This document shows, piece by piece, positions 3,183 through 44,653 of a stretch of 44,653 bases of DNA (position 1 is its first letter; every line of letters begins with the position of its first letter). The DNA is from a virus. A program made the translations under genes and the position numbers. Location of the stretch: the IMG/VR virus record IMGVR_UViG_3300013179_000001; one strand, 5' to 3'. The notes below the pieces were generated by a model. The model was not told where the DNA came from and ran no database searches. It saw only the letters and a list, made by a program, of their open reading frames with translations.

Positions 3183-3968
3183 ATGAATATTCAACCGTTC
3201 GACTTTCAGGGCCATGAGGTCCGAGTCATTGCGGAGGACCCGGAGAAGCCGCTTTGGGTTGCTCGTGACGTCGCCACCGCCCTCGGATACAAAGACCCAA
3301 CAAGTGCTATCAAGGCTCATTGTCGTGGGGTGGCGAATCACCACCCCATCCAAGACCGGTTAGGCCGCACCCAAAATGCCCGTGTTATCGCGGAGCCTGA
3401 CCTTTACCGACTCATCGTTGGTAGCGACCTGGAGACCGCGCAGGAATTTGAGCGCGTCGTATTCGAGGAAGTCTTGCCGTCGATTCGTAAGCGTGGTGGG
3501 TATCTGACGCCGGAAGCGGCGGAGCAGGCATTGACGGACCCGGATTTCATCATCCGCTTGGCTACCGACCTTAAGGAAGAGCGGGCTGCCCGCGCCGAGC
3601 TGGAAGCTCAGGCTGAAACCAACCGCCCAAAGGTGTTGTTCGCCGACGCCGTGTCTACGTCTAAGTCGCACATCCTGGTTGGCGACCTGGCGAAGATTCT
3701 CCGCGGTAACGGCATCCAAGTAGGCGGGACACGCCTGTTCAAGTGGCTACGTGAAAAAGGCTTCCTGATTAACCGCAAAGGCACCGACTGGAACATGCCA
3801 ACTCAACGGTCAATGGAACTTGGGCTTTTCAAGGTTAAAGAAACCACCGTCGTTCATTCCGATGGTCACACCTCGTTGTCAAAAACTCCGAAGGTGACGG
3901 GCAAAGGCCAGGAGTACTTCATCAGCCGGTTTATGGATGGCCGCTTCCAAATCGACGAAGTGGCTTAA
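3183..3968 (+). CDS. Phage antirepressor (Bro-N N-terminal domain + KilA-C C-terminal domain)
   Basis: N-terminus FDFQGHEVRVIAEDPEKPLWVARDVATALGY is Bro-N-like; C-terminal half matches the KilA-C-type organisation. Confidence 0.75.
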   Translation: MNIQPFDFQGHEVRVIAEDPEKPLWVARDVATALGYKDPTSAIKAHCRGVANHHPIQDRLGRTQNARVIAEPDLYRLIVGSDLETAQEFERVVFEEVLPSIRKRGGYLTPEAAEQALTDPDFIIRLATDLKEERAARAELEAQAETNRPKVLFADAVSTSKSHILVGDLAKILRGNGIQVGGTRLFKWLREKGFLINRKGTDWNMPTQRSMELGLFKVKETTVVHSDGHTSLSKTPKVTGKGQEYFISRFMDGRFQIDEVA

Positions 3969-4158: not shown

Positions 4159-4476
4159 GCACCTAAAAACAGAAACTTAGCCCGACGAGCAGGCAGGGGA
4201 GTGCGAGCCTCCCCACGGGCACTGGGACTCGTGTGTCCTGAATTTTCGTCAAAGTGACTTAACCCCGAGGGGTTAGGTCTAGGCGGAAAACGTTGTATCG
4301 AGAACTGAATTAGTGGATCAGCGCCACCAGCCCTTGTGGTGCCTGTGTTGACGGTGTAGCGACCTCGCACGGGCGTAAATGGTGGCGCGCATATAAATAC
4401 CAGGCCTGAATGGACCAATCACTTTTCTTTTACACCTACAACAGTGGCAAGGGGAATTGTGCTTACAAAAGACTAC

Positions 4477-4501
4477 TGGGGTTCGATTCCCCAGCGGGCT
4501 A
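4477..4501 (+). other. tRNA 3'-half-like fragment: T-arm (TGGGG-TTCGATT-CCCCA) + 7-nt acceptor 3' strand GCGGGCT + discriminator A; no matching 5' acceptor strand
   Basis: Canonical G53/TTCGATT/C61 T-loop read directly; complement AGCCCGC absent within 300 nt upstream, so not a complete tRNA. Confidence 0.4.
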
Positions 4502-4504
4502 CTG

Positions 4505-4602
4505 GGGGAGTAGAGAGACCCGGCCGCTTCGCCTAGCGGGTCTCGTAAGCAAGCCACTATGCGCGGCCTGGCCGTCGGCTGCGTTGGCGCGCTCTACTCC
4601 CC
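4505..4602 (+). ncRNA. Structured RNA element: 11-bp long-range helix (4505-4515 / 4592-4602) enclosing 8-bp hairpin (4515-4522 / 4537-4544) and GC palindromes
   Basis: Perfect complementarity read directly (GGGGAGTAGAG / CTCTACTCCCC; GAGACCCG / CGGGTCTC); non-coding, transcribed ahead of terminator at 4613-4660. Confidence 0.4.
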
Positions 4603-4612
4603 ATCCATGAGT

Positions 4613-4660
4613 AAAGCCCCGTGCAGTAGCTGTGCGCGGGGCTTTCTCAATCTATTTTCA
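4613..4660 (+). terminator. Rho-independent terminator (11-bp stem AAAGCCCCGUGC / GCGCGGGGCUUU, loop AGUAGCUGU, U-rich tail)
   Basis: Stem-loop and CTTTCTCAATCTATTTTC tail read directly; ends first early operon. Confidence 0.6.
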
Positions 4661-4692
4661 ATCCACCTCATCACCACAATAAGGAGGACACG

Positions 4693-4884
4693 ATGAAGCC
4701 TACCAAAACGCAGGCCTATTCAGTCCAAGAAGTCGCCGCCCTGCTAGGGATCGCCCCGTCGACACTGTATGACCACGTGCGCGCCGGAAAAGTAGCCCAC
4801 CTGCATCCCATCACGGTTGGTACTCGCACTGTATTCCCTAAGAAGGTTATCGACGCTCTCCTAGACCCGGCGGTGAGCGCATGA
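4693..4884 (+). CDS. Excisionase/AlpA-family HTH DNA-binding protein
   Basis: YSVQEVAALLGIAPSTLYDHVRAGKV...TVGTRTVFPKKVIDALL matches Xis-family HTH; strong RBS AAGGAGGACACG. Confidence 0.7.
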   Translation: MKPTKTQAYSVQEVAALLGIAPSTLYDHVRAGKVAHLHPITVGTRTVFPKKVIDALLDPAVSA

Positions 4885-8461: not shown

Positions 8462-8881
8462 TTGCTTTATTACTCATTAGATAAGGATGCGCATCAGCCT
8501 CGGTTTGCTTATGAGGGTGATGCTGGCATGGACCTCGCCCTGAAACACGACCTGACGGTGCCCGTGGGCGCCCACAGGGTAGGCGATACCGGCGTGCATG
8601 TTGCTGTGCCCCGCGGGCATGTGGGCATGGTGTTTGTGCGCAGCTCCACCGGTATTAAGAGGCATCTGGTGCTTAGTAACGGCACCGGCATCATCGACTC
8701 CGGGTATCGCGGCCCCATCAAAGTCAGCCTGCACAACACCGGCAACGAGACCCAGCACATCACCGCCGGCGACTACATCGCACAACTCGTAGTAGTCCCC
8801 ATCGCCACCAACAACATCGCCGAAGTACCCCAACTCCCACACAGCGAACGCGGCACCAACGGCATCGGAAGCAGCAAATGA
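8462..8881 (+). CDS. dut: dUTP diphosphatase (dUTPase)
   Basis: Motifs AGMDLA, GIIDSGYRGP, RGTNGIGSS; TTG start with AAAGGAA RBS. Confidence 0.8.
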   Translation: MLYYSLDKDAHQPRFAYEGDAGMDLALKHDLTVPVGAHRVGDTGVHVAVPRGHVGMVFVRSSTGIKRHLVLSNGTGIIDSGYRGPIKVSLHNTGNETQHITAGDYIAQLVVVPIATNNIAEVPQLPHSERGTNGIGSSK

Positions 8882-9549
8882 ACCCCTACTACCAAGACGA
8901 CTACATCACCCTCTACCACGCAGACTGCCTACAGCATTTGGACATGCTCAACCAAGCAGACGTAATGGTCACAGACCCACCGTATGGAGTTAAAAACAGT
9001 TCCAGAAAAGGCGGATACAGAGGAGCAGGGTCACAAATCTACAATGCCTCTCCAATCGCAGGGGATACGACCCTAGAGGCTAGGGACAAAGTACTAGCAG
9101 CCTGGGGGACTGGCCCGGCAATAGTATTCGGAGTCTGGTCCCGGCCACGACCAACAGGAACTAAAAGCCGTCTTATCTGGTGGAAAAAAGGGTCTGCCCC
9201 CGGCCCCACATGTTCGGCTTTTATGACCCAAGATGAAGAAATCTACGTTCTGGGCAAGGGGTTTATTGCTACCTCGCCGCCGCAACGTTCCGTTATCGAA
9301 ACGTCGGAACCCCGGTCTATTGAAGTCGCAAAGATTGGGCATCCGACACCAAAGCCAGTTGGCCTTATGGAGACATTGATTAACCGCTGCCCCGAACACT
9401 GGGTGATTGTTGACCCGTTTGCGGGGTCTGGTTCCACGCTACGTGCCGCTAAGAACCTAGGGCGCAAGGCGATTGGGTTTGAGATTGAGGAAAAGTACTG
9501 CGAAATCACCGCGCAACGCCTGGCCCAAGAAACACTAGGAATCTTCTAA
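8878..9549 (+). CDS. DNA N6-adenine/N4-cytosine methyltransferase (beta-class, orphan)
   Basis: DPPYG (motif IV) preceding FAGSGST (motif I); no cognate restriction gene nearby. Confidence 0.8.
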   Translation: MNPYYQDDYITLYHADCLQHLDMLNQADVMVTDPPYGVKNSSRKGGYRGAGSQIYNASPIAGDTTLEARDKVLAAWGTGPAIVFGVWSRPRPTGTKSRLIWWKKGSAPGPTCSAFMTQDEEIYVLGKGFIATSPPQRSVIETSEPRSIEVAKIGHPTPKPVGLMETLINRCPEHWVIVDPFAGSGSTLRAAKNLGRKAIGFEIEEKYCEITAQRLAQETLGIF

Positions 9550-44546: not shown

Positions 44547-44653
44547 TCGTAGTACGCCCACAACCCACTAAATACCCCCTCGACCAGCACGAACACTGTC
44601 TCTAGACCCCTCATCATCGCCCGAAATCCCGCACAAATCCCGCACCTGCGGCA
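44547..44653. repeat. Window-terminal direct repeat, copy 2 (identical to 1-107)
   Basis: Same as copy 1; includes 3' end of integrase coding sequence, arguing for genome wrap-around rather than attL/attR. Confidence 0.9.

Follow-up and report, generated by a model that had tools for sequence, protein, structure and literature searches.

The viral DNA examined here, IMG/VR record IMGVR_UViG_3300013179_000001 (44,653 nucleotides over its full length, hereafter the window), belongs to a Corynebacterium phage and carries at positions 4180-4656 a non-coding RNA module that very likely forms the 3' part of a cro/antirepressor early transcript. This module contains two complete tRNA-like domains (TLDs), termed TLD0 and TLD1, each with a closed structured domain no more than 2-4 nt beyond its 3' end. 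The explanation that best accounts for both is tRNA punctuation, in which host tRNA-processing enzymes would cut the transcript at these domains, and to which we assign a probability of about 0.55. An initial annotation, made from the sequence alone, had recognized only a tRNA "3'-half mimic" in this region and missed the domain at 4180-4222. Its description of the region as structured RNA is borne out, as a stretch of 501 nt folds better than 100 of 100 dinucleotide shuffles (z = -5.56).

Structure and conservation of the two tRNA-like domains

The T-arm, the 3' acceptor strand (ending at U4500) and the discriminator (A4501) on which the initial annotation rested are indeed present, with a T stem of 6 bp in place of the 5-bp version (4477-4481 / 4489-4493) given there. 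Its statement that no 5' acceptor partner exists proved wrong: 4403-4408 pairs with 4495-4500, forming in the window four Watson-Crick pairs together with G4403.U4500 and U4407.G4496. In an RNAalifold analysis of 17 aligned homologues all six acceptor pairs are kept in every sequence, with none broken, and three of the six show compensatory double changes; the T stem is likewise recovered. All full-length relatives carry a 6-nt complement of the 3' acceptor strand 40-100 nt 5' of the T-arm, and the co-varying versions include GGCCUG/CAGGCC, GCCCAG/CUGGGC, GCGCAG/CUGCGC, GGCCAG/CUGGCC, GCCGUG/CACGGC and GUUGCG/CGCAAC. Folded singly, each of the 17 homologues yields the same succession: the 6-bp acceptor stem is followed by ~10 nt left unpaired and then by a long, irregular hairpin, which a linker connects to the 6-bp T stem. 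Because the acceptor stem covaries and each homologue folds alike, what the initial annotation had flagged is a complete tRNA-like domain, TLD1, whose acceptor and T stems stack over 12 bp. D stem, anticodon-type arm and cloverleaf are all lacking; a D-loop-like GG is present, and across TLD1-type sequences GG accompanies UUC loops (13/13) and AG accompanies UGC loops (4/4). The ATG at 4410, which opens a 66-codon open reading frame (ORF), sits in the D-loop analogue, and relatives have CAG, ACG or GUA instead.

The minimum-free-energy fold suggested a different acceptor partner, AGCCCGA at 4179-4185, which would imply a tmRNA-like closed RNA of ~320 nt. This candidate was rejected because its GCCCG pairs locally with CGGGC at 4216-4220, in a covarying helix, and the true partner is 4403-4408.

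That local helix belongs to TLD0, the highly conserved 5' end of the locus, which is without any anticodon-type arm and represents a family of mini-TLDs. A covariance model of this family (R1), built from 19 sequences, has a single match in the window, TLD0 itself (65.7 bits, E 3e-13), and a relative fetched via a neighbouring protein (L072) shows four compensatory pair changes in this domain. In a non-circular test, a sequence-only pattern of linker and loop was scanned against viral contigs and gave 123 new matches, 19 of which have a perfect 6-bp stem, against ~0.3 expected; all 19 also have a perfect 5-bp acceptor stem. When 46 distinct members of the family are compared, 99.8% of cells are paired; double changes affect 12 of the 14 pairs, and slid controls drop to 26-49% paired. 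The 12 T-stem and 8 acceptor-stem variants are all perfectly complementary. As G.U pairs are present, A.C pairs are absent and all copies have the same orientation as the genes, selection acts on the sense-strand RNA.

The T loop of the family reads U, G/U, C, purine, A, N, N and is always closed by a G:C pair equivalent to 53:61, so that the tRNA T-loop consensus (G53:C61, U54, C56, R57 and A58) is invariant in all 46 members. Two contacts that lay outside the search model match the anatomy of the tRNA elbow (PMC4810234). The 19:56-like pair, between a linker G and the loop C, is G:C in 46/46, and the 18:55-like pair, at the site of the G18:psi55 contact, is A:G in 33 and G:U in 13, a rule without exception over the 46 mini-TLDs and the 17 TLD1-type sequences. 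The discriminator is A in 43/46 and the following base C in 45/46, with ACCA being common. Furthermore, the last two linker bases covary with T-loop positions 6-7 (59/60), again outside the search model, with 13 double changes; this pairing, absent from tRNAs, would form a small pseudoknot across the T stem. The combinations seen in alignment A3 (columns 16-17 with 31-32) are GC/GC, CC/GG, GG/CC, AC/GU and UC/GA.

Both TLD0 and TLD1 are thus predicted to combine the acceptor/T-arm stack, T-loop consensus, G19:C56 contact and discriminator of a canonical tRNA. Neither is a canonical cloverleaf tRNA by ARAGORN, the Rfam tRNA model or individual folds, there being no D stem and no 5-bp anticodon stem. 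The initial annotation had left room for a full tRNA that it could not fold by eye; ARAGORN finds no cloverleaf, and what is present is a complete mimic of acceptor, T-arm and elbow. Over the whole window ARAGORN reports 0 tRNA or tmRNA genes and Rfam 15 gives 0 matches at gathering thresholds. A scan of the locus against Rfam, which the initial annotation had proposed, returned no family, and at E up to 10 it yielded only noise there, with no tRNA, c4, GOLLD or ROOL match. A self-cleaving ribozyme (HDV-like, hatchet or pistol) was also considered for the mini element and rejected on account of its unfit strand topology, the lack of an Rfam match and the identity of the conserved bases with those of the T loop and elbow.

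Relatives in actinobacterial phages

Relatives of the locus were gathered by BLAST, which gave Corynebacterium phage IME1320_01, and by pattern scans of viral contigs, genomes and metagenomes, which gave 51 distinct loci, including prophages in C. yonathiae, C. hiratae and C. kefirresidentii. The position of the locus inside the early operon is constant in dozens of related phages. The Corynebacterium loci are mosaics assembled from TLD0, a hairpin domain of one of two types, the conserved single-stranded junction GAGAACUGAAU(U)AGUGRA, a domain with a variable set of hairpins inside a covarying closing helix, a tRNA-like domain or a real tRNA, a closed 3' domain of one of four types (all with CGUAAG and CCUGCA motifs) and terminators. 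The slot of TLD1 is occupied by a genuine tRNA-Leu(CAA) or tRNA-Leu(CAG) in five loci (L030, L040, L049, L053, L063), by tRNA-Leu(UAA) in the more distant L168, and by a 41-44-nt mini-TLD in five others (L008, L009, L011, L014, L022); in L032 a tRNA-Lys(UUU) lies directly 5' of the type-b 3' domain. Rfam on the relatives matches only real tRNA and RNase P RNA genes. The second option raised in the initial annotation, a phage-encoded structured RNA with a tRNA-like element in the cro/antirepressor operon, is supported by these data and has to be widened to a modular family with real tRNAs in the same slot. In two of the loci with a tRNA-Leu (L049, L053) a long TLD follows the tRNA directly.

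Short forms of the locus consist of TLD0, one hairpin, a ribosome-binding site (RBS) and a gene (L010, L012, L034, L050, L052, L054, L059, L071). Five loci (L009, L022, L042, L046, L062) have an inserted HNH homing-endonuclease gene, as in L009 from ~300 nt after TLD0. The inserted gene comes with a separate version of the middle-domain 3' part on its 5' side, together with a mini-TLD, a hairpin and an RBS, and on its 3' side a remnant of the original 3' part is left. By their sequence organization these insertions look like intron-less homing into a non-coding RNA gene, and as they carry a replacement 3' part and mini-TLD they imply selection to keep the RNA intact.

Two relatives (L066, L006) have two units of TLD plus 3' domain with an HTH_17 gene between them, and the window has one chimeric unit. 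The window corresponds to the arrangement in L066 minus ~468 nt between the two T-arms, with a left flank 95% and a right flank 96% identical, a pattern that fits loss of the segment through recombination of these two T-arms.

Mini-TLDs also form arrays between early genes in other actinophages. R1 detects 4-7 same-strand copies per contig in uncultured viral contigs of 60-63% G+C (L086, L098, L140, L152, L159, L160), one of which, L152, has no BLAST match to named relatives at the DNA or protein level. In Streptomyces phage Joe (L193, KX815338) 8 unannotated copies lie on the minus strand between 7056 and 11676, in the gaps between early genes gp65-gp79, each with a hairpin and then an RBS downstream, and BLAST recovers homologous copies in the R4-like Streptomyces phages phiCAM, Amela, Verse, Endor1/2, the phiScoe phages, Sitrop, Kamino and others. 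Over 41 copies the element stands a median of 8 nt past the upstream stop codon, and the next start codon is a median of 39 nt downstream; in 39 of the 41 a hairpin begins within 3 nt of the "AC", and the RBS comes next. The mini-TLD was not found in phiC31 or in the examined regions of Corynebacterium phage phi16 and Streptomyces phage Manuel. The text of the phage Joe genome paper makes no mention of tRNA or of these elements, and Rfam gives only sub-threshold scores in the phage Joe region, the best being to mascRNA/menRNA (26.2, 18.6 and 18.4 bits; the gathering score is 42.5).

In five of the uncultured contigs (L152, L160, L140, L098, L086) the hairpin directly after each mini-TLD is near-palindromic, GAYUGACAnnnnnUGUCAA. 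This hairpin might double as a DNA operator, because the core of L5-type stoperators, TGTCAAG, is similar to its 3' half.

Proposed transcript processing and the alternatives

The discriminator and the following C (RCCA) are a contact of bacterial RNase P, and minihelices of acceptor stem and T-arm suffice for RNase P, RNase Z and the CCA-adding enzyme. In TLD0 and TLD1 the elbow, the acceptor/T stack, the discriminator and the C are kept, the parts used in decoding are lost, and real tRNAs, which must be excised from the transcript, are interchangeable with them; for these reasons we propose that the mimics serve as signals for processing. Within a few nt of each tRNA or TLD a closed helix begins, as seen in the Corynebacterium loci compared for this layout and in 39/41 mini-TLDs. 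In the mechanism that we envisage, host RNase P would cut immediately 5' of G4180 and of G4403, and RNase Z or 3' exonucleases would trim past A4221 and A4501. The predicted products are a middle-domain RNA of ~180 nt, the 99-nt TLD1, and a 3' domain with terminator of ~150 nt, each with a stable helix at a terminus, and the helix after each mimic would give the downstream RNA a protected 5' end. In the other actinophages the 42-nt mimic would separate early cistrons, and the downstream messages would start with a structure that resists nucleases. Such processing probably releases the conserved middle and 3' domains as functional RNAs.

Several points weigh against this proposal. Cleavage at the mimics is deduced wholly from sequence. 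The TLD0-type stack has 11 bp (5 + 6, or 12 layers with an A.A in the Corynebacterium form), compared with 12 bp in tRNA, and this makes the exact RNase P site uncertain. Pairing between the linker and T-loop positions 59/60, unknown in tRNA, could mean another fold or partner, and a helix only 2-4 nt past the discriminator could hinder 3' processing and not help it. Finally, a pure processing role leaves the conserved, covarying middle and 3' domains unexplained.

tRNA-directed toxins are common defence systems in Actinobacteria, and the mimics, present in many copies on abundant early transcripts, might act as decoys or sponges, titrating those host factors whose attack or modification is aimed at the elbow or acceptor end of tRNAs and sparing the tRNA pool for the phage; possible targets are MenT/AbiEii-type nucleotidyltransferase toxins, tRNA 3'-end pyrophosphokinases and other tRNA-directed defence nucleases. 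Such a role would build on punctuation and not replace it, because enzymes directed at 3' ends could be decoyed only after processing has exposed such an end. It would fit the multi-copy arrays in early operons, the co-occurrence or alternation of the elements with real phage tRNAs, and the strict conservation of the acceptor end, discriminator and C74-like base with a dispensable anticodon part. However, we consider it unlikely, as decoys would not require placement between stop codon and RBS and, in the loci examined, the elements are not accompanied by linked defence or anti-defence genes. The same fixed placement, with hairpin and RBS between the element and the start codon, speaks for elements that remain uncut and work in cis, either as mRNA stabilizers and exonuclease barriers or by contacting the ribosome at the L1 stalk, A and P sites and coupling termination to initiation. 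That the ribosome recognizes tRNA elbows (PMC4810234) also counts in favor of this reading. Nevertheless, the fact that the discriminator and the C after it are conserved argues for end-processing enzymes, and the slot is also held by real tRNAs, which are certainly excised, so that a purely uncut element is comparably doubtful. Moreover, coupling cannot be the role of TLD1 in the window and its Corynebacterium relatives, because there it is flanked by non-coding structured RNA and not by genes.

The presence of real tRNAs in the slot of relatives, and the failure of ARAGORN and Rfam to recognize the TLDs as tRNAs, could be taken as signs of decaying tRNA pseudogenes from a phage tRNA cluster that are functionless today. 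This is very improbable and is already contradicted by covariation, as dozens of divergent copies show perfect compensation in both stems and both tertiary contacts; nor would decay be expected to remove the D stem and anticodon arm uniformly, or to leave 4-8 copies per genome at fixed positions. A role of the 42-nt element at the DNA level, as a repressor stoperator (R4-like or L5-like) or a replication or recombination site, receives some support from the many same-orientation copies in short intergenic gaps, as known for stoperators, and from the recombination between two T-arms that apparently gave rise to the arrangement in the window. The L5 stoperator motif, GGTGGCTGTCAAG, is a short asymmetric DNA motif bound by the immunity repressor. 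R4-like phages are reported to have at least 8 stoperators in intergenic regions (PMC10276819). The published R4 motif, TGTGCAAGTGTNGC, differs from the mini-TLD consensus, and no exact copy of it occurs in the scanned early region of phage Joe. Since a protein-binding site would conserve sequence, and what is conserved here is the pairing through the many stem variants, together with bases that are exactly those of the tRNA T loop and elbow and in the sense strand only, we hold a DNA site to be extremely improbable.

Temperate phages often integrate into the 3' ends of tRNA or tmRNA genes and carry that segment, and the perfect T-arm had led the initial annotation to offer, as its other option, a captured host tRNA/tmRNA 3' fragment at attP. 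This option is already contradicted and hardly credible, as the domain has its own covarying 5' strand and the locus is internal to prophages, collinear with the window on both sides in L024 (a C. kefirresidentii genome), L023 and L032. In IME1320_01 the annotated attP-L lies at the genome end by int, 3.3 kb from the homologous RNA locus, and the element of the window is 3 kb from int. In L032 a host RNase P RNA gene (8730-9169, minus strand; Rfam 285.9 bits) lies ~66 nt beyond the estimated int stop. Because the prophage locus is internal and collinear, and rnpB is beside int in L032, integration takes place next to int and not at the RNA locus. The rnpB 3' end may be the integration site in L032, a metagenomic Corynebacterium contig; no rnpB fragment was found in the window. 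Among other viral contigs just one, that of a close relative, shares an exact 26-mer of T-arm and acceptor strand with the window.

The elements have the hallmarks of embedded tRNA-like folds, i.e. the class of mascRNA and the t-elements, in structure, covariation and position between genes or structured domains. mascRNA and menRNA are RNase P and RNase Z cleavage signals that set the ends of a neighbouring RNA. Like the phage elements, those of MALAT1 and MEN-beta (RF01684) are tRNA-like folds that form part of a longer transcript; they have an elbow, a T-arm and an acceptor stem but do not decode. Unlike them, mascRNA and menRNA occur in eukaryotic nuclear long non-coding RNAs, in one copy per transcript, and are cloverleaf-like with a small anticodon stem, whereas the phage element has 42 nt, no anticodon stem, a linker that pairs with T-loop 59/60, and an arrangement in arrays between bacterial-type cistrons. 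With no sequence homology and sub-threshold scores, the phage elements are not members of that family. T4 tRNA cluster species 1 and 2, the C4 antisense RNA of P1/P7 and the phi80 M3 RNA are tRNA-linked or minihelix-shaped and matured by RNase P; C4 is located in an antirepressor immunity operon, and GOLLD and ROOL are large phage non-coding RNAs beside tRNAs. None of these is known to have the succession TLD-domain-TLD-domain-terminator or an inter-cistronic array. Plant mitochondrial t-elements are tRNA-like structures by genes, at which RNase P and RNase Z were proposed to form mRNA ends (Forner et al. 2007, PMC1920247). They share the logic proposed here for inter-cistronic mini-TLDs, but are individually different, degenerate copies of particular organellar tRNAs, in contrast to one stereotyped family in actinobacterial viruses.

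The tRNA-like domain of transfer-messenger RNA (tmRNA) also resembles these elements, having an acceptor/T-arm stack, a D-loop analogue without D stem, a discriminator A and, as in TLD1, a long helix at the position of the anticodon arm. It differs in being formed from two RNA ends, whereas the domain in the window is formed locally. A tmRNA, standard or permuted, was rejected, as the 3:70 pair is C:G or G:C and not G3:U70 and both ARAGORN and Rfam are silent. No tag reading frame is conserved, the junction AAU(U)AGUG varying by 1-nt indels between relatives.

A wider generalization is tentative and falls somewhat short of even odds: actinobacterial phages may use a dedicated 42-nt elbow mimic as a general punctuation mark, cutting early polycistronic transcripts via host RNase P and RNase Z into messages that are each stabilized on their own, and releasing structured non-coding RNAs, with processed mimics perhaps also serving as decoys. 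In that case bacterial viruses would have their own equivalent of the tRNA punctuation known from mitochondria. Should the mimics serve as processing signals, temperate phages of Corynebacterium species from human skin, R4-like phages of Streptomyces and many uncultured actinophages would organize early expression via the host tRNA-maturation enzymes, a layer of control not known from phage operons, and the 42-nt element would be a compact, portable transcript-cutting signal for Actinobacteria. The "gaps" that these genomes show as long, unannotated stretches would thereby be accounted for. Rfam 15 lacks at least two RNA families that are defined here; the 18:55 pair, which covaries as G:U or A:G, and the pairs of linker and T loop show how small an elbow-building RNA can be, and the middle and 3' domains are conserved structured RNAs that homing endonucleases avoid destroying. 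That tRNA-like structures act as end-forming signals is already known from mascRNA, plant mitochondrial t-elements and RNase P-matured phage RNAs. What appears to be new is the minimal 42-nt elbow mimic between phage cistrons, the larger Corynebacterium-phage RNA locus and the covarying 18:55 alternative; no prior description of these elements was found in the literature outside subscription journals.

Other structured domains and genomic setting

Table 1. Coordinates of the RNA locus and adjoining genes in the window; a slash separates the two strands of a helix
Feature	Position	Strand	Sequence or remark	Basis
Bro-N/KilAC antirepressor	3183-3968	+		Pfam
Small ORF	end 4158	+	same direction; 21 nt 5' of TLD0	ORF list
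TLD0, mini tRNA-like domain	4180-4222	+	43 nt	covariance model R1
TLD0 acceptor-like stem	4180-4184 / 4216-4220	+	GCCCG / CGGGC	
TLD0 D-loop-like linker	4185-4195	+	11 nt	
TLD0 T-like stem	4196-4201 / 4209-4214	+	GGGGAG / CUCCCC; G:C-closed	
TLD0 T loop	4202-4208	+	UGCGAGC	
TLD0 discriminator	4221	+	A4221, then C4222	
TLD0 putative tertiary contacts		+	A4188.G4203 (18:55-like), G4189:C4204 (19:56-like), G4193:C4208, C4194:G4207	
Middle structured domain	4223-4402	+	module swapping	homologous in >40 loci
Middle-domain hairpin	4224-4228 / 4235-4239	+		
Middle-domain compound hairpin	~4243-4288	+		
Conserved single-stranded junction	4300-4317	+	GAGAACUGAAUUAGUGGA	
Middle-domain closing helix	4321-4328 / 4381-4388	+	GCGCCACC / GGUGGCGC; variable hairpins inside	
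Conserved A-rich linker	4389-4402	+		
TLD1, tRNA-like domain	4403-4501	+	99 nt	alignment A1, RNAalifold, individual folds
TLD1 acceptor stem	4403-4408 / 4495-4500	+	GGCCUG / CGGGCU	alignment, RNAalifold
TLD1 D-loop analogue	4409-4415	+	AAUGGAC; putative contacts G4412.U4483 and G4413:C4484	
TLD1 long irregular arm	~4420-4458	+	replaces anticodon arm	
TLD1 linker	4459-4475	+		
TLD1 T stem	4476-4481 / 4489-4494	+	CUGGGG / CCCCAG	
TLD1 T loop	4482-4488	+	UUCGAUU	
TLD1 discriminator	4501	+	A, after 3' acceptor strand ending U4500	
3' structured domain, type b	4504-4602	+		alignment of 7 type-b domains
3'-domain P1, 11-bp long-range helix	4505-4515 / 4592-4602	+	GGGGAGUAGAG / CUCUACUCCCC	
3'-domain P2 hairpin	4517-4522 / 4537-4542	+		
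3'-domain extra helix	4548-4554 / 4585-4589	+	GC-AA-GCC / GGCGC	
3'-domain P3, 8-bp hairpin	4561-4568 / 4577-4584	+	GCGCGGCC / GGCUGCGU	
Intrinsic terminator-like hairpin	4613-4625 / 4633-4645, to 4656	+	13 bp, U-rich tail	minimum-free-energy and centroid folds
HTH_17 (excisionase/MerR-type) gene	4693-4884	+	PF12728	Pfam, E 1.2e-10

The hairpins of the middle domain are kept in an RNAalifold analysis of 10 sequences, with changes from A:U to G:C, and variants of its closing helix read off relatives include GCGCCG/CGGCGC, GCGCCACC/GGUGGCGC and GUCCU/AGGAC; the homologous loci have no conserved ORF in this domain. The 11-bp long-range helix, the 8-bp hairpin and the strong intrinsic terminator, all noted in the initial annotation, were recovered in full (Table 1). 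The type-b 3' domain has a conserved GUAAGCAAGCC, and its helices P1, P2 and P3 differ in sequence yet remain complementary in L011b/L014b and L032b, as judged by eye in alignment A4, whose MAFFT columns for P1 and P2 are imperfect. The extra helix shows one G:C to U:A change, G.U variants in the domain are confined to the plus-strand sense, and the domain invariably begins 3-4 nt after a tRNA or TLD. The terminator at the end of the locus is conserved in relatives; the hairpin has only a weak match to a terminator-like small RNA model.

Some relatives (among them L001 3360-3400, L005 and L008) have after TLD0 a type-2 hairpin with a conserved apical loop GGGGAUAG(G), and the window has the other hairpin type. 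This loop resembles GGGATAGGAGCCC, the "start-associated sequence" of cluster K mycobacteriophages.

The gene-poor stretch 4160-4692 holds no credible gene and is bounded by the small ORF and the HTH_17 gene, the latter being the Xis-like gene that had been placed immediately after the locus, and present also 3' of the RNA locus in L032 and L041. A promoter scan found nothing, its consensus being that of E. coli sigma-70 and uninformative for this host. A search for antisense targets elsewhere in the window gave only scattered 11-12-mers at chance level, none convincing. Upstream of the locus, on the same strand, there is also a cro-like HTH gene, and the opposite strand of the window encodes a tyrosine integrase, a SHOCT protein and an ImmA/IrrE peptidase. 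The first 107 bases of the window recur exactly at 44547-44653, and hence it represents a circularly closed assembly of ~44,546 bp and not a linear fragment.

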